Both the position numbers and the translations under genes were made by a program. The notes under the pieces were generated by a model. The model saw only the letters and a list, made by a program, of their open reading frames with translations, was not told the DNA's origin and made no database searches. DNA of 63,910 nucleotides, the filler included, from Stramenopiles sp. TOSAG23-2 (taxonomy: Eukaryota), in NCBI GenBank assembly GCA_900128395.1. It is 3 parts of 3 records of this genome, joined end to end, with 100 filler letters (N's around TTAATTAATTAA, not from the genome) between each part and the next. Parts side by side here need not be neighbours in the genome. Positions count along the whole stretch, not along the records: positions 23,460 to 46,770 come from LT649490.1; 2 more parts are not named here. The stretch is one strand, 5' to 3'. This document shows, one piece after another, positions 23,360 through 50,949 of this stretch. Each line of letters opens with the position of its first letter. Position 1 is the stretch's first letter.

Positions 23360-23459
23360 NNNNNNNNNNNNNNNNNNNNNNNNNNNNNNNNNNNNNNNNN
23401 NNNTTAATTAATTAANNNNNNNNNNNNNNNNNNNNNNNNNNNNNNNNNNNNNNNNNNNN
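23360..23459. other. Artificial contig linker
   Basis: 44 N + TTAATTAATTAA (stops in all six frames) + 44 N. Confidence 0.98.
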
Positions 23460-38130: not shown

Positions 38131-38949
38131 GATATATATATATATAAGTTCCTTCTCTTTTTCACTTACTATGTTTTCCTTCAAAGTATGACAATACATC
38201 TTTTTACTTTTCTTTATATATATATCGTTTATCGATACGAATGGTCAAAAATTCATCTTTTTTGATCTTAATTAAATTCAGTATTTTATGTTATTCTAAC
38301 TTCCCTTTCAAGTATAAATTAGTATGCTATCATTTGATAGGATTTCATGCAAATTTTGTCGTGATTCAGCATATCCGAAATTCCAAAAAACAAATGAAAA
38401 TATATGATGGAAATATCCGCATAAATCATATTGATTGGGAATATAACTTGTATGTATATATACTAATAAGTATAACAACACGTTTTGTTCCAAGATTTTC
38501 TACATTTAGCATACGAATAGCGTTAACTTTGGCCCCCATCCACGACATGTTTTCTGCTCTACGGCATGTTTCCATATTTGCGTATCGGTTTTTTCATATA
38601 GTCTATAGTATTTACATGCTAAACAGCTTATTTAATTAATAAGAAGCCATATGACTTCTTTTTTTTAATGAAAGACACACACATTTCCAATAAAATATAT
38701 ATAATAGATGGGAGATAGAAATAGATAGATGTTGGTTGTGTGAGATGAAAACAATTTCTGGATATATATATATTGTATTTGATAACTATAATATATCATT
38801 CGTTTTTGTAGTGTTGTATGCGTGTGAAAACAACGTGTATAGTATAGAAATCACTACATATATACATATATATATACACACACAATTTTATTATTATTTA
38901 TTAATATTACGTAGATAGATATATATCAAATTTATAATAATAAAAGATC

Positions 38950-39907
38950 ATGAATAATAATAATAATAATAATAAGAAAGAAACAACATTTCCATCTTCC
39001 GTTTCGAATAATACTCTTCATAAATCTAACAGTACAAAACAACTAGAAAATGAAAAGAAAAAGCTATTGAAAAAATTACGGAAAACGCATAATGAAATTG
39101 CTACAAAGCAAATGACAGTCAAATTTATATGATGAAGAATTGGAATCAAAAGGCTGGAATAGAAAAGAAGTTGCATTAGCAGCTAAAGACGTAGTTGATA
39201 TATGTTTATTGAAACATATTAACGATGATGATGATGATGATGATGATGATAATAATAATAATATTAGCAACCCAATCCAAGAAAAAGGCTTGGAAGAGGA
39301 AGAAGAAACAGAAGGTATCGAGGATGAGGAAAAGGTCGAAGAAACAGAAGATATCGAGGATGAGGAAGTGGAAGAAGAAGTACTAGTTGTAGAAGTAGAT
39401 AGCGCGAAAACGAACCAAGAAACAGTGTCATTGGAAAGCGTAGTTAAAGTAGAGTCAGAGGAAATATCAGAAGAGGATAGTCGAATTAAATTTGAAATTA
39501 AAACATTGAAAAAGATGGTAGATAATAATGTAAAAAGAGTGCATGATAGAATTGAAAACTCAAGTACAACAAGTAGCAATAATGACAATAATAAAAATGA
39601 CGAGACAACAACGGATAGAGAAGAAGAATATTTTCTTGCAATGAAGAAAAAAAAGGATGAAGAAGAGCTTGCTGCAAAAGAAGATAGAGAGAAGAAATTA
39701 GCCAGCATGAATGAAGAAGATAGACTTGCTTTTTTGCTAACTGAAGCGGATCAATTAGAGCATCGGAAGAAACAAGATAGGATGTTAAAAACTCAGTCTA
39801 GCTCCTTTTTCGTTGGAAAAAAGAAAAAAGTTGGCGGTGGTAGAGGAAAGAAGAAGAAGAAAGGAAAAAGCAAGAAGAGCAATAAGAATAACAAAAATAA
39901 AAAATAA
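38950..39907 (+). CDS. Acidic/basic low-complexity protein with one apparent +1 frameshift near 39121
   Basis: ORFs 38950-39132 and 39140-39907 join if one A is removed from GTCAAATTTATAT. Lys-rich GGGRGKKK tail. Confidence 0.6.
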
Positions 39908-40691: not shown

Positions 40692-41688
40692 GGTTTACTT
40701 ATTTACATATATGTACATTGAATGTTTCTATATTTACAATTTTGGTCTATTCAACGTGTAGATAACGGCTGATAAATACTCTTTCCTATATTTATTTTTA
40801 TTACGCATACAACAAAAAAGATACATGTTGTATTTGTGATGTTGCTGATGTTGTGTCGATGTTGTTCGTTTATTGTTTCGCAACTTTCCGATTATATTAA
40901 AAAAAAACGGACTTAGCGAGACTTCTGCTTCTGGTTTCTTGCTGTGAGAATATCAAATTTTATACTTGAGAAGAGGGCATGAAATCTCCTAATATAGATC
41001 TATGATCTAGATCTAAGATCTAAAATCTAAGATCTAGATCTGTACAATATAATACCTTAACCTGGTAACTGGTGATGCGAGTTTTTTTTTTGTGAGATTT
41101 TTTCTTCTTGCTGGATCTGTACAATATAATACCTTAACCTGGTAACTGGTGATGCGAGTTTTTTTTTTGGCTGCTGGCTTGCCTTAGCTTGCATGCAACT
41201 CTTTATCTTCTTCTAGAATTTTTAGAATTTTTAATAATAAGAATATTTGAATTTTTTTAATCACACACACTCTATAGCTGGCTTGCAAAAAGTTCTCAGT
41301 CCCCCTTTTTTTTTTTCATTTTTCTACTACGTTACATCTTTGTTATCTGTATTTTATTGTATTGACGTTGAGTTTATTATTCTAGTTTTTGTTTTGTTAT
41401 ATTATCATTTAATTTTATATATTATCAACTTCAAGTTTAGTAAAACATGTTGAAAAAAATGAAAAAAAATAAGCCATTGTTGGTTGAAATATTATTGACA
41501 TTATCAGCTGCTTTTCTATATTATGGTGTAGAAAGTGCAAAAATGATACGTACAGTTGCAGCAAATGGACAAGGTATTGATATGCGTGATGTATTTTATT
41601 GTATTGACGTTGAGTTTATTATTCTAGTTTTTGTTTTGTTATATTATAATTTAATTTTATATATTATCAACTTCAAGTTTAGTAAAAC

Positions 41689-44600
41689 ATGTTGAAAAAA
41701 ATGAAAAAAAATAAGCCATTGTTGGTTGAAATATTATTGACATTATCAGCTGCTTTTCTATATTATGGTGTAGAAAGTGCAAAAATGATACGTACAGTTG
41801 CAGCAAATGGACAAGGTATTGATATGCGTGGATGTGGTGTTGAAGGAAATATTTACTGTAATACTACACAATTTGCTATATTTGAATCAAATGATGGTGA
41901 TGAAATTGTATTATTAAAAGGTATTCATACGTGTGATACTAATATTACAACCGTAGTATATGGCGATAGTAATGGTGGTATAAGATTTGTACAACGTGAT
42001 GGAAACACTGCTATTAGTGGAATATATATACATGGTGCTAACAATACTAGAAATGATAATGTTATATATGATTGTAAACATACAAAACGCGCATTTGCAT
42101 TTATGAGTGAAAATGAAGGTTTAAATACTGCATTGAGTAATTTTAGTATTTCTAATGGGAGTGCTCATCGGGGAGGTGGTGTATATATTCAATCACAAGC
42201 TCAACCTATATTTAATCATGTCATTTGGATTCGTAATGTAGCACAAGGTGGTGGTGGTGGTGTTTTTATCGTAAATTCTAATACCAATCCAACATTTAAT
42301 AATTGTACATTTCAAGAAAATAAAGCACAATATAGTAAATATGGTGGAGGTGGTGTATATATTGAATTCGATGCTCAACCTATATTTAATCATGTCATTT
42401 GGATTCGTAATGTAGCACAAGGTTATGGTGGTGGTGTTTTTATCACAGATCCTAATACCAAACCAACATTTAATAATTGTACATTTCAAGAAAATAAAGC
42501 ACAATATAGTAAATATGGTGGAGGTGGTGTATATATTGAATTCGATGCTCAACCTATATTTAATCATGTCATTTGGATTCGTAATGTAGCACAAGGTCGT
42601 GGTGGTGGTGTTTTTATCTCAAGTTCTAATACCAAACCAACATTTAATAATTGTACTATCGCAAGTTCTAATACCAAACCAACATTTAATAATTGTACAT
42701 TTCAAGAAAATGAAGCACAATATAGTAAATATGGTGGAGGTGGTGGTGTATATATTGAATTCGATGCTCAACCTATATTTAATCATGTCATTTGGATTCG
42801 TAATGTAGCACAAGGTTATGGTGGTGGTGTTTTTATCTCAAGTTCTAATACCAAACCAACATTTAATAATTGTACATCTCAAGAAAATGAAGCACAATAT
42901 AGTAAATATGGTGGAGGTGGAGTATATATTGAATTCGATGCTCAACCTATATTTAATCATGTCATTTGGATTCGTAATGTAGCACAAGGTTATGGTGGTG
43001 GTGTTTATATCAGAGATTCTAATACCAAACCAACATTTAATAATTGTACATTTCAAGAAAATGAAGCACCAAATAGTAATTATGGTGGAGGTGGTGTATA
43101 TATTCAATCACAAGCTCAACCTATATTTAATCATGTCATTTGGATTCGTAATGTAGCACAAGGTGGTGGTGGTGGTGTTTTTATCATAAGTTCTAATACC
43201 AAACCAACATTTAATAATTGTACATTTCAAGAAAATAAAGCACAATATAGTAAATATGGTGGAGGTGGAGTATATATTGAATTCGATGCTCAACCTATAT
43301 TTAATCATGTCATTTGGATTCGTAATGTAGCACAAGGTGGTGGTGGTGGTGTTTTTATCATAAGTTCTAATACCAAACCAACATTTAATAATTGTACATT
43401 TCAAGAAAATAAAGCATTAAATAGTAATTATGGTGGAGGTGGTGTATATATTAAATACCAAGCTCAACCTATATTTAATCATGTTATTTGGATTCGTAAT
43501 GTAGCACAAGGTCGTGGTGGTGGTGTTTTTGTCACAAGTTTTAATACCAAACCAACATTTAATAATTGTACATTTCAAGAAAATGAAGCATCAAATAGTA
43601 ATTATGGTGGAGGTGGTGTATATATTGAATTACAAGCTCAACCTATATTTAATCATGTCATTTGGATTCGTAATGTAGCACAAGGTCGTGGTGGGGGTGT
43701 TTTTGTCACAAGTTTTAATACCAAACCAACATTTAATAATTGTACATCTCAAGAAAATGAAGCACAATATAGTAAATATGGTGGAGGTGGAGTATATATT
43801 GAATTCGATGCTCAACCTATATTTAATCATGTCATTTGGATTCGTAATGTAGCACAAGGTCGTGGTGGTGGTGTTTTTATCATAAATTTTAATACCAAAC
43901 CAACATTTAATTATTGTACATTTCAAGAAAATGAAGCACCAAATAGTAATTATGGTGGAGGTGGTGTATATATTCAATCACAAGCTCAACCTATATTTAA
44001 TCATGTCATTTGGATTCGTAATGTAGCGGAAGGCCGTGGTGGTGGTGTTTTTATCATAAATTTTAATACCAAACCAACATTTAATAATTGTACATCTCAA
44101 GAAAATGAAGCACAATATAGTAAATATGGTGGAGGTGGAGTATATATTGAATTCGATGCTCAACCTATATTTAATCATGTCATTTGGATTCGTAATGTAG
44201 CACAAGTTGTTGGTGGTGGTGTTCTTATCACAGATTCGAATACCAAACCAACATTTAATAATTGTACATTTCAAGAAAATGAAGCACAATATAGTAAATA
44301 TGGTGGAGGTGGAGTATATATTGAATTCGATGCTCAACCTATATTTAATCATGTCATTTGGATTCGTAATGTAGCACAAGGCCGTGGTGGTGGTGTTTTT
44401 ATCATAAATTTTAATACCAAACCAACATTTAATAATTGTACATCTCAAGAAAATGAAGCACAATATAGTAAATATGGTGGAGGTGGAGTATATATTGAAT
44501 TCGATGCTCAACCTATATTTAATCATGTCATTTGGATTCGTAATGTAGCACAAGGCGGTGGTGGTGGTGTTTTTATCATAAGTTCTAATACCAAACCAAC

Positions 44601-46770
44601 ATTTAATAATTGTACATTTCAAGAAAATGAAGCATCAAATAGTGATTATGGTGGAGGTGGTGTATATATTCAATCACAAGCTCAACCTATATTTAATCAT
44701 GTCATTTGGATTCGTAATGTAGCACAAGGTGCTGGTGGTGGTGTTTATATCACAAGTCCTATTACCAAACCAACATTTAATTATTGTACATTTCAAAACA
44801 ATACTGCTATCAAAGGTGGTGGCGCGATACGACTTCCATTTTATCCTGACTCACCACCCAGCACCGGTGAATGCGGAACATCACTCAACTTTACAAGTAA
44901 AACAATATTTTCCAATAACAAGGCAAATTACAACGCTGGTAATTCAATTTATATTGATATCATACAACCACCATCTGTTCAAACACCTATGAAAGTTTAC
45001 TTTGCACCAACATGTTTTCATAATAAATTTATCAGCACCGGTGAATGCGGAACATCACTCAACTTTACAAGTAAAACAATATTTTCCAATAACAAGGCAA
45101 ATTACATCGCTGGCAATTCAATTTATATTGATATCATACAACCACCATCTGTTCAAACACCTATGAAAGTTTACTTTGCACCAACATGTTTTCATAATAA
45201 AATGGTGGAGGTGGTATATATATTGAATCACAAGCTCAACCTATATTTAATCATGTCATTTGGATTCGTAATGTAGCACAAGGTCGTGGTGGTGGTGTTT
45301 TTATCTCAAGTTCTAATACCAAACCAACATTTAATAATTGTACATTTCAAAACAATACTGCTGTCAAAGGTGGTGGCGCGATACGACTTCCATTTTATCC
45401 TGGCCAACCATTCAGCACCGGTGAATGTGGTACACAAATCACCTTTACAAGCAAAACAATATTTGCCAATAACAAGGCAAATTACAACGCTGGTAATTCA
45501 ATTTATATTGATATCATACAACCACCATCTGTTCAAACACCTATGAAAGTTTACTTTGCACCAACATGTTTTCATAATAAATTTATTACATATATAAATC
45601 AAAACGATAACAGGAAGCAACACGCAAATATCAATTACAACATTGCTACATCTCCATATAAACTTACCATCAGTAAACCAGGCACATTAATACCAACTTC
45701 CATATCGCCAGGAATACAATTAAAAGGTAGTTTACAAGTACAAGATGTATTTGGTAGAAGTTGTACTGAAATTCAAGATAATGATTACACCGCATCAGTG
45801 CGTTTGCAAAACGACAAACAAATTAAGTTTCAAGGTTCGACGGTATTTCTAATTCGTAAATCTGGTATAGTAAATATTTCATATTTAAATGAATTAAAAA
45901 TTAGGAGCGCACCATCCAACTTAATAGGTAAACAAATATCATTACAATTTACTCAAGAAAAATTACAATCTGTAAATACAACAATAACACTTCGTCAATG
46001 CAGAAAAGGATTTCAATCCTCAACAATTAATGATGGAGTATTAACATGTAACCCATGTCCAGCACAACAATATAATGTTATTTCTGGTGGAATATGTCAC
46101 GATTGCCCAACAATTGGTGCAATTTGTATGGGACAGGATGATGTCTATGTACAGCCAGGATATTACGGACATGTTGGACATATTAATACACATTATGGTG
46201 AAATATCAGTATTTGAATGTAGTAGTGGTCTATGTTGTCCATATTTTAATGGTTCTTCCCTTGAACCGTATGATATAAATGGAATAGGGTGTCGTGTTGG
46301 TAGTGGAAAAGATTGTACAACAAATCGTGATCCATTAATCCCTTTATGCGGTTCTTGCATCTCCGGCTATAGTGAAGTTTTAGGCAGTTCTATATGTCGT
46401 AAATGTACCTACATAAATTGGTTTTGGTTTATCATTCCTTTTCCAATTGGTATGATATCCATTATATATTTATTACGTAAAACCTATCTTGCAGCAACAA
46501 AAAATATTTTATTCACATTAATATTTAAGAATTTAATGTTTTTTTACCAAGTTGTTGGTTTAGTATTAAGTCCATCGCAATTAGTAAAACGTGTTAGTGG
46601 CCCTTTATTGATGCTTTTCAGTTTTAATGTTGCAACAAATGAAGCAGATCATTCAGATAGTAATAGTAATGATAAAAAAATAACGACTGAAAATCCATTC
46701 AGTTGTTTAATACCAAATTTAACACCAATTGGTAAATTAGCATTTAATATATATCCAATGGGTATATTAA
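41689..46770 (+). CDS. Polymorphic-membrane-protein-like (GG[A/G]V/I, FxxN) beta-helix surface protein with a Cys-rich stalk and multi-pass C-terminus; truncated
   Basis: Signal peptide, 15 x 58-aa repeats, then CxxC-rich CNPCP...C...QPGYYG...LCGSC..GY, then TM segments (FKNLMFFYQV). Frames are broken by duplicated blocks at 45030-45585. Confidence 0.85.
42170..44800 (+). repeat. 174-bp coding tandem repeat, 15 copies
   Basis: TTTAATCATGT recurs at 42211, 42385, 42559, 42778 and then every 174 bp to 44692. Confidence 0.97.
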
Positions 46771-46870
46771 NNNNNNNNNNNNNNNNNNNNNNNNNNNNNN
46801 NNNNNNNNNNNNNNTTAATTAATTAANNNNNNNNNNNNNNNNNNNNNNNNNNNNNNNNNNNNNNNNNNNN
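46771..46870. other. Artificial contig linker
   Basis: 44 N + TTAATTAATTAA + 44 N. Confidence 0.98.
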
Positions 46871-46924
46871 AGAAAGAGTGGGAAAGATGGTGGGCTGTAT
46901 GTATAAATTAAAAAAAAACAAAAT

Positions 46925-49900
46925 TTCGATTTGATTTGGCCATACCATCACTTTATTTCTATCTCCACCACCAGTAGTTTTTATCGAATCAGTTTTTCTT
47001 TTCTTCAATGCTCCAGCATCGAAATCATGCATTGGCATTTTCATGTTACACGCGCCTACTTTAAATGTACTTGGTTCAAATGCATTTGGATTCCATATTA
47101 TACCGATGGTATGACCTTTATATGAATCACGGAAGAAAAAAGCTAAGTTACCAAATGATTCACGTAATTTATTGATATACTTTGTAAACGGGTCGAAATC
47201 AAAGATTAGACGGTCTAATGGATCTTTAGTTGATAAATTTCGATATGTTTCAACACGAAAACGTTGACCAAACTTACTTGTTGACCCTTTTAATTCATTT
47301 ATATGTTTGTGTTTTCTTCTTTTATTTGTATTCTTGTTTGATGGCATGAAAAGGGGATATTGTCGGCAAGGTATATTTTCTGCTAGTAGATATATAGTTG
47401 CATCATAGTCTTTTCTAGATGGCGGTTTAAATGCATTTATGGCATTGTCCATCATATGGTTCTTTTTAATCATATTTACCGTTTCTTTTGCCAATGCAAC
47501 GAAGCGTTTTAAATACACGCTAGGCATGGCATTATTTTCCATCCACGACGGGACCCATTTAAGTTCTCGATCATACGATGTTACGACATAAAATAAAGTT
47601 TTATCTTCGCGAGTATGTTTCCTTTGTTGCGTTAATATTTCTTGTTTATGTTCGAATATTTCTTCGATCTCCCCTATGTCGTTAGGGGAAATGGAATCAT
47701 CAATGTCTACAATCAATGGTTCAAATTCCCATTCGTGATTTGCTACTAATTCTAAAAAACGTAAAAACCCAGTTAAAAAGGAGGATGGCGGCTCATGTGG
47801 TCTACAAGATGGATCCACGAATAGGCTAGCTACTATAATTTCAATCATCTCCTCTGACAATATATCCGATAACATTTTTGCATGAAACCAATGTTTCACT
47901 AATCGAACAACTTCCCCATAGACATTAAAGCGCAATTGCAAGGAATGAATTAAGTTGCTATGGATAATTTTTAAATCTGTGTTTAAACGCAAATTTCTTA
48001 ATCGTTTCTCCGCATCAATTTGTGTTACCATGACCCTATTATCAAAAATAAACTTTCTTTTGCCTCCTATTATTCTTGGTATCTTTGACGATGCAATCGC
48101 CAACAGTTCCTTCTCATGGTCGCAGATAATACTTAAACGAAATGCATAGCCAGCATATGCAATATCCAATGCACCATCCCGTGCTAGACTTTTGATGCTA
48201 AAGGATTTACGCAGCGATGCGCCAAGACTACATAAAAATGCAGTTTTTACTTTTTGTATTGCAAACAAATCATCTGGCCATCTACCACTGGATTCTAATG
48301 AAACCATCACTTCGTGTGGATGAATAATTTTGGATGCGTATCCATTATCTTTTAACCCATCTTCAACATTGCCTAATAAGGGGTGGAACGCTGGAGGATG
48401 TTCCCTGGTGTAGCGCCCACCAGAACTAATGAATTGCAACGCAGTGACACGCAGCGGTAATGTTTCTAAACTTGTGACTTTGATGGCCAAATCATCTAAT
48501 GTTTGCCTTAAACGTTTAAACAAATCATCCGACGTAGATGTTGTTTTAAACACGGGCTGTAAAAATTGATTTAATTGATTAGAGGATATTTTCATTCGCT
48601 TCAGTTGCATATCGTCTATTGCATATTTTAAATGTCTATTGAAAATATATTTAATAATTTGAGATATTACAGAGTACTGATTCCCATATTTATTTTGCCA
48701 CAATGTCGCCTCAACAATAGAACCATCTTTAAAGCGCCTTAATTCAGATTTTTCACCCCAGAATTTTCGAAATGTCGCTGCCATTTCCTTCTCCTCAGCA
48801 TTTGGACCACGATCCAGGGTACGTGCAAAAGTAGATTTTTCCAATATAATACCAACTATAATATTGCGTAACGGCAGCTGTTTGCGCCGTAACTGCATGC
48901 AATTCCATGAATTTTTGCTCCTTTTTTCCCACATCACTCGTATTAAACGAGCGCGGTCAGTCAACGCTCGAGACAACACATCATGCATATGNNNNNNNNN
49001 NNNNNNNNNNNNNNNNNNNNNNNNNNNNNNNNNNNNNNNNNNNNNNNNNNNNNNNNNNNNNNNNNNNNNNNNNNNNNNNCATGCATATTTTGCAATGTTT
49101 CTTGCTTCCAATATTTGCGTTTGTTCCTATTACGGCTTTCGTTGTTGTTGTTACCAACGTTGCCATCAGCATCGCCTTCATCTACGTTGTCTATGCTCGG
49201 TAAAATGCCATATACATCATATTTACTCCAAAGTTTCAAATTCGACTGACCTAAAAACAATGGATCAAATGAATATGTTGATGAACCATGATTGTTTTTT
49301 AAAAAACGATGAGATAATTTAGCTTGATACCGCAGTTCGTTATAAGCATCGAGGGAGACCCTCGATGCTAAATTCAACAGACATTGACTGTCTAGCATAA
49401 CTACATCATGAGATTTTAAATGTGTATTAATGCTTTGTTTGTAATTCTTATTCTTTTCATTATTATTATTATTATTTAAAATCAACACATGTCCAATTTT
49501 TCCAAAGTCACGCTTTGCTATATATACAATAACTTTCTTAAATATTTGTTTTGCAGAAGCATTGTTATTTATTTCCTTTTTATTTAATAAATCCGATGCC
49601 AATATCGAAATTAAAAATCCATTAAAAGTATCTGGTGCATGTAACATTTCGCGTCGTTGTAACCAAACTTTGAGCAACTGGCATGCGCCAATAAAACCTT
49701 TGCATTGCAAAGCTGTCTGGTGTAAACTTTGTAGATGGTCTCGCATATAGATATCTTCTAATATAGAACAATTATAACGTGGAGTTGGCACTTTTTTTAA
49801 TTCTTGTTGTTCATCATCATCATCCTCGCCATTGCTAGTCAAGGTTTCTTTGTGCATTCTTAAATTACCCTTTAGCGGATTTAATTTTTGAACTTCAAAC

Positions 49901-50949
49901 ACATCCTTACTAATGATTGGATAGATACGAATAGAAAATTTCTTTGCTAATTTTGATGTTTGACCAGATGCTTTCTTGCGTTTCTTTGTTTTTCCTTTCG
50001 TATCCTTCTCATAACTACTATTATCATCATCAGCTGCTAATTTAAATACTAATATTGGCTTGCTAAGATCATTTCCTTCTCTCCAACCTTGAATTTCGAT
50101 ATCTGAAAAAGAACTTTCTTTTGAAAGTTCATTAGCGATAGCTGATAAATACAACCGGCGTTTGTCATGATACCGATAATCTAAAACATCTTTTGGAACA
50201 AAACAACTGTTTGGAATTTGCACCGTAATATCAACATTACAATTCGATTTGATAATTGAATGTAACAAATAACTACCAACAAGATCAATTCGAGACGGTT
50301 TTTCAAAACGTAGAGATATTGGCTTTGTGTGATGTTTCCATAATGGATGTAAACCTTTACATTTTTGAAAAACTGGAGAATTTTCATTCATATCAAACGG
50401 TATCATTCCGTTTAATATTTTTTTTAACGTAAATAGACACTTTTCAAGATCTTTTAATGCCTTGTAATCAATACTAACGTGTTTCAATAATGATATAATT
50501 TTCAGTTCCATCATATTTGATTTTACTCTATTCGATTTACTTTTATTAAAACCATCTGTTTGTCTTAATTGTTGCATTTCAGATGTTGTAGGCAATGAAA
50601 AACGCGGATCATAAGAGGAATGCTGGGAATTTTTTCCTTTTCGGTTGCTTGTTTCTGTTGTTTTTGCCCTTCCTGTTGTCGTCGTAGATGCCACTACTGC
50701 TACAGTAGTATCTAAATAATAACCAAGACCATTATCATCGTTTTTAAATACATAACCTTTCTTTGCTCCAACAAATTTTGTGGATGGAAAAAATTCGACA
50801 TCGTAATTCGAAGAATTTTCAGCTTGAATAGATGACGATGAATCTAAAGTATTTTCTAAATCCGAATCTGATTCACTGCTAGAATCAGAAGAGCTATTTT
50901 GTACCTTTTTTGTGTTACCACGTGCTGCACGTCGTCTATTTCTTGGCAT
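46925..50949 (-). CDS. NOL6: Nucleolar protein 6 / Utp22 (Nrap family); spans an N gap, last codons missing
   Basis: VGSYLL, KDVLDYRYHDKRRLYL, PTPRYN, LLKVWLQRR, FRKFWGEKSELRRFKDGSIVE and ESSGRWPDDL. Confidence 0.95.

Follow-up and report, generated by a model that had tools for sequence, protein, structure and literature searches.

RESULTS

A gene with a long array of double-rung repeats

The window analyzed here is a stretch of 63,910 nucleotides from Stramenopiles sp. TOSAG23-2 (assembly GCA_900128395.1), and the contig that forms its middle part (LT649490.1, positions 23,460 to 46,770) ends within a gene that encodes a tandem array of near-identical beta-helix repeats. The gene starts at the ATG at 41689 on the plus strand, as do all features of the gene given below, and its 3' side is truncated by the contig end at 46770. 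From the start codon, an open frame of 1195 aa runs to 45276 and comprises a signal peptide, an N-terminal cap, 15 repeat units, and duplicated pieces of a C-terminal cap; according to the translation, it ends 24 codons past a change of frame. In the product of this frame (P0001), residues ~1 to 31 (41689 to 41781) are predicted to form a signal peptide or N-terminal hydrophobic helix, with a Kyte-Doolittle segment at residues 10 to 28 and a helix at residues 9 to 27 of the structural model. Residues 32 to 160 (41782 to 42168) make up a domain ahead of the array that is kept in relatives, is modeled with low confidence, and matches no Pfam family.

Downstream of the frame change, 523 codons are open. 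They hold a third cap copy followed by a beta-rich stalk (45378 to 45998), as judged from the secondary structure of a low-confidence model; a cysteine-rich region (45999 to 46406), with 15 cysteines over the matching 145 residues of the relative P0008; and the first hydrophobic membrane segments (46419 to 46770), after which the contig ends and relatives continue for ~310 residues. The full-length relatives P0009 to P0012 (1025 to 1259 aa) show the same order throughout: a signal peptide and the conserved N-terminal domain come first, followed by 2 to ~10 units and their degenerate cap rungs; next come the beta-rich stalk, the cysteine-rich region (15 cysteines per 145 residues), at least six hydrophobic segments, and a tail. 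At least six such segments are found by Kyte-Doolittle analysis at the C terminus of both P0008 and P0009. The gene encodes a membrane protein in which a right-handed beta-helix of the Pmp type, preceded by a signal peptide, is joined to a cysteine-rich stalk and a multipass membrane domain.

The array itself (42169 to 44823) consists of 15 in-register units of 174 nt, each encoding 58 aa in two rungs of 28 and 30 aa. Tandem Repeats Finder (TRF) recovers the 174-nt period over 42172 to 44796, as 2.8 copies at 94% and 12.3 copies at 92% matches (score, 3542), and the peptide AQPIFNHVIWIRNVA occurs 15 times in the 1195-aa frame, spaced by 58 aa in 13 of 14 intervals and by 73 aa in one. The preliminary description of this DNA, made from the sequence alone, had counted 15 units of 28 plus 30 aa; TRF and translation confirm that count, and we add a 16th unit (45204 to 45377), which lies in the other frame, is of a terminal type (ESQ / R / FISSS), and is closest to the last unit of a syntenic gene in a related assembly (L002). 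Unit 15 is also of the terminal type and ends in ...FQNNTAIKGGG. Within unit 3, TRF detects a 42-nt internal duplication (42615 to 42698) that adds IASSNTKPTFNNCT and is modeled as a low-confidence loop; the same unit has an extra Gly codon, GGT adjoining 42733 to 42735.

Differences among units are concentrated in four slots, whose variants had been listed correctly and are all found in register from 42169. The slot after AQG holds G, Y, R, V, or A; that after GGGV holds FIVNS, FITDP, FISSS, YIRDS, FIISS, FVTSF, FIINF, LITDS, or YITSP; that after EN[KE]A holds QYSKY, PNSNY, LNSNY, SNSNY, or SNSDY; and that after YI holds EFD, QSQ, KYQ, or ELQ. Two corrections apply to the view that variation sits at four separate places. 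Codons 48 (F/S, with S in 4 of 14 units) and 52 (K/E) vary as well, and two of the slots are linked: the variant before GGGG perfectly predicts the one that follows VYI in the next unit, QYSK being followed by EFD in nine of nine cases and xNSx by xxQ, so that the independent modules are fewer than four. Of the 22 N-x-S/T sites of P0001, 14 are N-C-T sequons within the array, which makes glycosylation possible; the substitution N45Y in units 10 (43780 to 43953) and 15 (44650 to 44823) abolishes the N-C-T sequon common to all other units.

Fold of the array and position of the variable slots

Each unit contains two motif pairs, WIRN...GGGV and FQEN...GGGV. Pfam places the repeats in Beta_helix (PF13229; E value of 4.8e-38, 130.7 bits against a cutoff of 25.9, nine stretches) and in the Pmp repeat family Chlam_PMP (PF02415; E value of 1.4e-11, 43.8 bits against a cutoff of 20.6). 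Pfam rows for DUF6717 and AmyA-A_glucT_m on P0001, in which no single stretch passes, were taken as summed repeat noise. Among 1.84 billion representative sequences, phmmer matched 13742 proteins at an E value of 0.001 or better. Of the best 150, nearly all align over the beta-helix part only, and the matches that we sampled are large Beta_helix proteins, 8 of 10 of which also carry Chlam_PMP.

An AlphaFold model of the N terminus and seven units, built from an alignment of 11 rows, has a mean predicted local distance difference test score (pLDDT) of 72.7, with block values of 77 to 96 over most repeats, and shows a confident regular solenoid with rungs of three to four strands. The 15-residue insert of unit 3 falls below a pLDDT of 50 at model residues 314 to 326. 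The rung strands are VYI, IFN, IWI, and VA; rung 1 of the unit reads GGGGVYI-EFD-AQPIFNHVIWIRNVAQG-R, and rung 2 reads GGGVFI-SSS-NTKPTFNNCTFQENEA-QYSKY. When compared with the PDB by Foldseek, the repeat model matched beta-helix proteins exclusively, but weakly, with none of 401 matches at an E value of 0.001 or better.

In chlamydial Pmps, as described in excerpts of one source (PMC10715098), the motif FxxN is buried, as is GGA(I,L,V), and variable loops emerge between them on one face; the same excerpts mention the noncanonical forms GGGI/GGVI and (I/L/V)xxN as accepted. By analogy with this scheme, WIRN and FQEN can be read as FxxN-type motifs and GGGV as a GGA-type motif. The slots after AQG and after EN[KE]A then lie in the turn between the FxxN-type and the GGA-type motif, and those after YI and after GGGV lie in the turn that follows the GGGV-x-I strand. 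Since all four slots flank one short strand of successive rungs, they should line up as stripes down one side of the rod. The kinship with chlamydial Pmps suggested earlier is well founded, given the two Pfam families, the confident solenoid model, and motifs that match the chlamydial rung scheme. That the slots line one face is supported insofar as they are nonstrand turns flanking GGGV-x-I, a placement taken from the secondary structure of the model rather than from its coordinates.

Variation among units and possible selection on the loops

The 14 complete units differ by 35 nonsynonymous and 10 synonymous single-base variants. We compared the units pairwise, using the proportions of nonsynonymous (pN) and synonymous (pS) differences. 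Over all 58 codons, pN is 0.073 and pS is 0.062 (pN/pS, 1.17); over the 43 framework codons, the values are 0.007 and 0.064 (pN/pS, 0.11); and over the 15 slot codons, which were chosen after the fact, they are 0.247 and 0.055 (pN/pS, 4.5). The framework had been described as almost unchanged even at silent sites. It is near-invariant, but its pS of 0.064 means that silent sites are not fully so.

A two-class Poisson model without preselection of codons gave a nonsynonymous-to-synonymous rate ratio (omega) of 2.1 for 41% of codons, against an omega of 1 (likelihood ratio test [LRT], 3.10; p ~0.04). For 30 units pooled from the window and the related loci L001, L002, L006, and L007, with 65 nonsynonymous and 18 synonymous variants, omega was 2.05 (LRT, 5.66; p ~0.009). 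Because these tests ignore genealogy and recombination, we regard them as suggestive: the variable class has an omega of about 2, with a signal that is weak in the array and moderate in the pooled units. The most variable positions coincide with those of 23 units from six relatives (Spearman correlation, 0.56; p 4e-6), in which the turn before GGGG varies in length as well. The slots are therefore the loop positions of the family and not a peculiarity of this array. Overall, loop variety is tolerated and probably mildly favored.

Mosaicism, age of the units, and related loci

In the assembled array, slot variants recur in different combinations, as first noticed. All four gametes are present at 108 of 210 pairs of informative sites, and the minimum number of exchanges (Rm) is at least 7 within 174 nt. 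The units are young: pS between them is 0.062, compared with a dS of 0.10 (N-terminal part) and 0.13 (C-terminal part) between the gene and its syntenic counterpart in L002. The latter locus is 91 to 94% identical to the window over the 4 kb upstream and has an intact frame of 1026 aa, yet only two units, which resemble the first and the 16th unit of the window.

The commonest module in the array, QYSKY...EFD, is present in nine copies and was found in none of the other loci or proteins examined. QSQ, ESQ, PNSN, SNSN, and FISSS are common to other loci. The fragment P0004, from another collection, combines the same framework with different loop variants, and the pattern of framework plus slots recurs in the independent records P0004, L001, L007, and P0009. 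At framework codons, the units of the window differ from those of L006 and L007, two paralogues, by a pS of 0.024 and 0.074, respectively, whereas the C-terminal domains of the same genes give 0.40 and 0.41. Two of the units compared, unit 3 of L001 and unit 4 of L007, have an altered frame or one additional codon; pN is inflated for those loci as a result, but this contrast is unaffected. Such near-identity of the framework at silent sites across paralogues may reflect either concerted evolution across genes or chimeric assembly.

Some related arrays are interrupted. L001 (5998 to 6866) has in-frame stops at codon 52 of its first unit and codon 26 of its third, L006 (151 to 498) has one at codon 9 of its first unit, and L007 (5998 to 6870) has one at codon 8 of its second; the frame change in L001 is of 1 nt. 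TAA accounts for three of these stops and TGA for one, and three of the four are at slot codons. We considered a variant genetic code and ruled it out, given the use of both TAA and TGA here and of all three stop codons by 14 frames of the window (TAA 9, TAG 3, TGA 2). As to L001, its signal peptide (L001:5542-6150 compared with L007:5503-6192) is L007-like, ending in ...CTSSAK; its mature N terminus and its C terminus are near those of the window gene, and it has no similarity to the upstream region of the window. It may be a mosaic paralogue or a chimeric contig. The stops, the frame change, and the mosaic structure of L001 fit real turnover with frequent pseudogenes and assembly trouble in a repeat family equally well. 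Downstream of the paralogues in L006 (6034 to 7785) and L007 (12528 to 14243) lies what we take, from its translation, to be a gene for a mitochondrial-type ATP synthase alpha subunit.

Duplications, the frame break, and the assembly

Two further tandem duplications flank the array. A 242-nt segment is present in 2.0 copies at 99% (TRF; 41348 to 41835), so that the 5' end of the gene occurs twice and start codons stand at both 41447 and 41689; in L002, this segment is not duplicated. In addition, the degenerate cap rungs STGECGT...FAPTCFHNKFI are duplicated with a period of 174 nt (44859 to 45201; 2.0 copies at 98% by TRF, and by alignment). Although the cap lies outside the canonical units, this period equals that of the unit exactly, and the cap resembles two degenerate rungs (…TIFSNNKANYNAGNSIYIDI…). 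The cap duplication is consistent with exchange between copies that paired one unit out of register. Its first junction is in frame. The junction CATAATAAA|ATGGTGG at 45195 to 45206 is out of frame: it is one base shorter than the AAATATGGTGG of the unit, shares few bases across the join, and shifts the frame from that of 41689 to that of 45201. This junction is either a real lesion or an artifact of amplification or assembly.

Parts of the stretch occur in runs from marine or seawater metagenomes and in small runs of one coded organism. We compared the stretch with the public contigs of four runs, which are collapsed contigs only. Contigs of runs X1 and X5 link 41412 directly to 41652, so the second 5' copy is absent or collapsed there. 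In the C-terminal part, X1 differs at 51 of 1117 positions and is hence not the same strain. Short contigs of poly-A RNA fall on the array and on the stalk.

DISCUSSION

The best description of this gene is an ordinary but striking intragenic expansion of tandem repeats, with concerted evolution and variable loops, in a class of protist membrane proteins about which little is known. We favor, with a probability of roughly 0.55, a reading in which a double rung expanded recently and in this lineage by unequal crossing-over and gene conversion, while loop diversity was kept or favored in a protein with a surface role in adhesion or recognition. Under this model, double-rung units would be added and kept uniform by exchange both within the array and with paralogues, the long tracts of identical framework serving as homology. 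With breakpoints falling in those identical stretches, loop variants would be reassorted like cassettes. The invariant framework consists of the strands plus the buried motif pairs, GGGV with either WIRN or FQEN, and the slots are the two turns of each rung next to the short GGGV-x-I strand; the number of repeats would set the length and reach of the rod. Of this picture, the sequence establishes the anatomy, the fold class, the mosaic arrangement within the assembly, the youth of the units, and the copy-number difference from the syntenic gene of L002; recombination as the mechanism, selection on the loops, and the function are inferences.

A location at the cell surface is plausible from the N-terminal hydrophobic signal and from the hydrophobic segments, at least six, of the full-length relatives. 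Adhesion or recognition is the role we favor, by analogy with chlamydial Pmps and with the Pmp-like proteins of trichomonads, whose overexpression raises adhesion according to the portion of that study cited here (PMC6701047). The preliminary description had gone further and proposed a diversifying surface receptor assembled by recombination between units. Its surface location is plausible and its units are mosaic, but omega exceeds 1 only weakly to moderately, and neither a dedicated nor a somatic process is indicated.

Several observations weigh against the favored reading. The order and number of units rest on one draft contig, in an assembly joined by artificial linkers, and the public contigs within the array are 48 to 162 nt long, none of them, among the pieces listed, bridging two units. 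The frame break at ~45200 would mean that the beta-helix is made without its membrane part or that the gene is dead, and odd duplications occupy the 5' end and the cap region. Four in-frame stops and one frame change occur in the 12 units of the L001, L006, and L007 arrays. The RNA signal is thin, consisting of a few short contigs at a depth of 2 to 6 from one poly-A library, with 1 to 7 differences each. Exposure of the slots derives from model secondary structure and motif positions instead of coordinates, and the selection tests count variants without genealogy or recombination and reach marginal to moderate significance.

As an alternative, the array, the 242-nt and 174-nt duplications, and the frameshift might all be products of assembly from short reads, possibly of amplified or pooled DNA, of near-identical paralogues or alleles; the true locus would then have few units, and the reshuffling would reflect chimeric path-finding or recombination in vitro. 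Tandem repeats do cause assembly errors, according to the excerpted text of a review (PMC6868369), and between 42100 and 45600, 68% of 31-mers and 5% of 127-mers are repeated. The window consists of draft contigs linked by N44-TTAATTAATTAA-N44, the syntenic gene of L002 has only two units, related assemblies break at the array (the contigs L004 and L005 begin in the last unit), at least three paralogues in one related assembly are >86% identical, and the X1 and X5 contigs are without the second 5' copy. Yet the longest exact repeat in the same region is 177 nt and no 201-mer is repeated, so reads or pairs over ~200 nt could resolve the array. A graph assembler cannot invent k-mers, and the seven A-B-C contexts of the EFD variant each fit within 90 nt and must therefore exist in the reads. 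Because QYSKY...EFD, with its nine copies, is absent from the other loci and proteins examined, the array cannot simply blend paralogue types already known; slots set in a common framework are also present in P0004, L001, L007, and P0009, and the few bases shared at the cap junctions are unlike a graph misjoin. On balance, we consider this explanation unlikely, though far from negligible.

Less probable again, and in our view doubtful, is a decaying pseudogene that lost its frame after a runaway expansion, its slot variation reflecting relaxed constraint at positions that were never important. A framework pN/pS of 0.11 is hard to reconcile with it, since replacements would be even in a long-dead gene; 1195 codons are open before the break and 523 after it, the omega of the variable class is estimated above 1 rather than at 1, and the poly-A RNA contigs on the array and stalk argue weakly in the same direction. 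What speaks for decay is the frame change at ~45200, the duplicated 5' end, the four in-frame stops in 12 units of related arrays, the F-to-S change of the buried motif FQEN in 4 of 14 units, and the loss of the N-x-T sequon in units 10 and 15.

A combinatorial recognition surface is a more ambitious idea, which we hold to be quite improbable. Here, the framework, with its identity at silent sites, would act as a homology tract for frequent segmental gene conversion that draws on the array itself and on intact and broken paralogues. Loop cassettes beside one strand of the beta-helix would be reassorted, the rod would change in length, and receptors would differ among cells of one population, as a beta-helix counterpart of variable receptors based on leucine-rich repeats (LRRs). 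A dedicated system with programmed, frequent, possibly somatic gene conversion and cell-to-cell differences, following the logic of the lamprey variable lymphocyte receptors (VLRs) or Borrelia vls, seems to us very improbable as well. The invariant framework, cassette-like loops, extensive mosaicism, and omega of ~2 at the loops would suit such a system, as would a framework homogenized even across paralogues with diverged C termini and the many close paralogues and broken copies that could act as donors. However, ordinary unequal exchange explains the same data, and the sharing of QSQ, PNSN, SNSN, ESQ, and FISSS with other loci points to an old pool rather than to fresh generation. A scan of 38 other frames of the window gave no match to a reverse-transcriptase or recombinase family, and adenine bias is absent (14 of 45 variants are at A, compared with 59 A among 174 consensus bases). 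We also considered the array as the target of a diversity-generating retroelement and ruled this out, as none of those 38 frames matched a reverse-transcriptase family and the 45 variants fall at 14 A, 16 T, 8 G, and 7 C.

If the array is real, it shows cleanly, in a natural case, how a folded solenoid can lengthen: whole double rungs are added through unequal exchange, the buried framework stays the same down to its silent sites and between paralogues, and the turns on one side may differ freely or be driven to do so. The gene would also draw attention to a rarely studied class of eukaryotic surface proteins that unites a Pmp-type beta-helix with a multipass membrane domain; such proteins may act in the recognition of prey, substrate, or cells in abundant uncultured marine protists. 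Near-identical repeats that differ mainly in exposed loops are a familiar mode of surface-protein variation. If the array is instead a product of assembly, it is a warning, since collapsed or chimeric repeats yield exactly this pattern of an invariant scaffold with reshuffled slots.

Comparison with known systems

Chlamydial Pmps, as far as covered by the excerpts of two sources (PMC10715098; PMC11166332), resemble the array in having rungs of ~28 to 30 aa, a buried aromatic-x-x-N and GGx(I/V) motif, and variable turns on one side of a right-handed beta-helix. The window gene differs in being eukaryotic, in its noncanonical motifs GGGV and WIRN/FQEN, and in rungs that are near-identical tandem DNA copies instead of old, diverged ones. 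Pfam finds neither a Pmp middle domain nor an autotransporter barrel in P0001, the downstream frame, or five full-length relatives; in place of these, the protein has the cysteine-rich stalk and a multipass helical membrane domain, and it does not belong to the chlamydial autotransporters.

The trichomonad Pmp-like proteins (Handrich et al. 2019, PMC6701047), in the sections of that paper used here, are likewise eukaryotic, with N-terminal Pmp-type repeats; where the bacterial proteins have a secretion domain, they have a membrane anchor. They are described there with a single C-terminal transmembrane helix, the motif ATPITK, and endocytic tail motifs, unlike the hydrophobic segments found here, which number at least six. 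ATPITK is absent from all six proteins that we checked, so the protein is not a member of that group, and the likeness between the two is one of repeat type.

As in the FLO/ALS adhesins of yeasts, the units are in-frame tandem copies; in those proteins, unequal recombination changes the number of units, which alters length or reach (see also PMC3899988). FLO/ALS repeats are mostly disordered stalks rich in Ser and Thr, whereas here the repeats are folded double rungs and variation is confined to defined turns. LRR receptors, including plant NLR/RLP proteins and lamprey VLRs, have a conserved scaffold with variable residues aligned on one surface of a solenoid, and in Borrelia vls, variable cassettes are reassorted by gene conversion. 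The array shares with these systems the logic of a scaffold with variable positions and differs from them in fold, and nothing in it pointed to an archive of donor cassettes, an expression site, or a somatic assembly process of the VLR or vls kind.

In the membrane part, Pfam (E values up to 0.1) identified no family in P0008 to P0012, with neither TRP nor Ephrin_rec_like among the matches. A word-based homologue search with the membrane region returned the same six close relatives only, and a profile search of the C-terminal alignment against PDB sequences gave nothing meaningful, with one row at an E value of 0.29. The model of the C-terminal 723 aa of P0008, from an alignment of 10 rows, has a mean pLDDT of 33.4 and is unusable for a fold search. 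In the open-access literature, we found no paper on this protein family or on a Pmp beta-helix joined to a multipass domain in marine protists. A language-model search placed the C-terminal part near clusters that carry Chlam_PMP (24 to 34% of members), Ephrin_rec_like, or TRP (PF06011). PF06011 is carried by 25% of the members of the TRP cluster (score, 0.92), and the nearby clusters come from ciliates, haptophytes, green algae, and sponges. As a lead rather than an assignment to that family, the rod might be coupled to a channel-like, TRP-type domain.

Other features of the window

Other frames of the window encode adaptin, PPR, Myb, ankyrin, Nrap, and pirin proteins, placing the gene in a eukaryotic setting. 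Upstream of it, positions 38934 to 39907 hold a frame of acidic, low-complexity sequence in which GAT and 36-nt repeats occur (39224 to 39379), and a 7-nt AGATCTA repeat of 6.9 copies occupies 40995 to 41041; Pfam assigns no family to frames at either place. The artificial contig linkers lie at 23360 to 23459 and 46771 to 46870 and have no strand. Since the second of these cuts the gene at 46770, the Nrap gene past it belongs to a different contig. That gene (46871 to 50949, minus strand) is split by an 88-N gap at 48992 to 49079.

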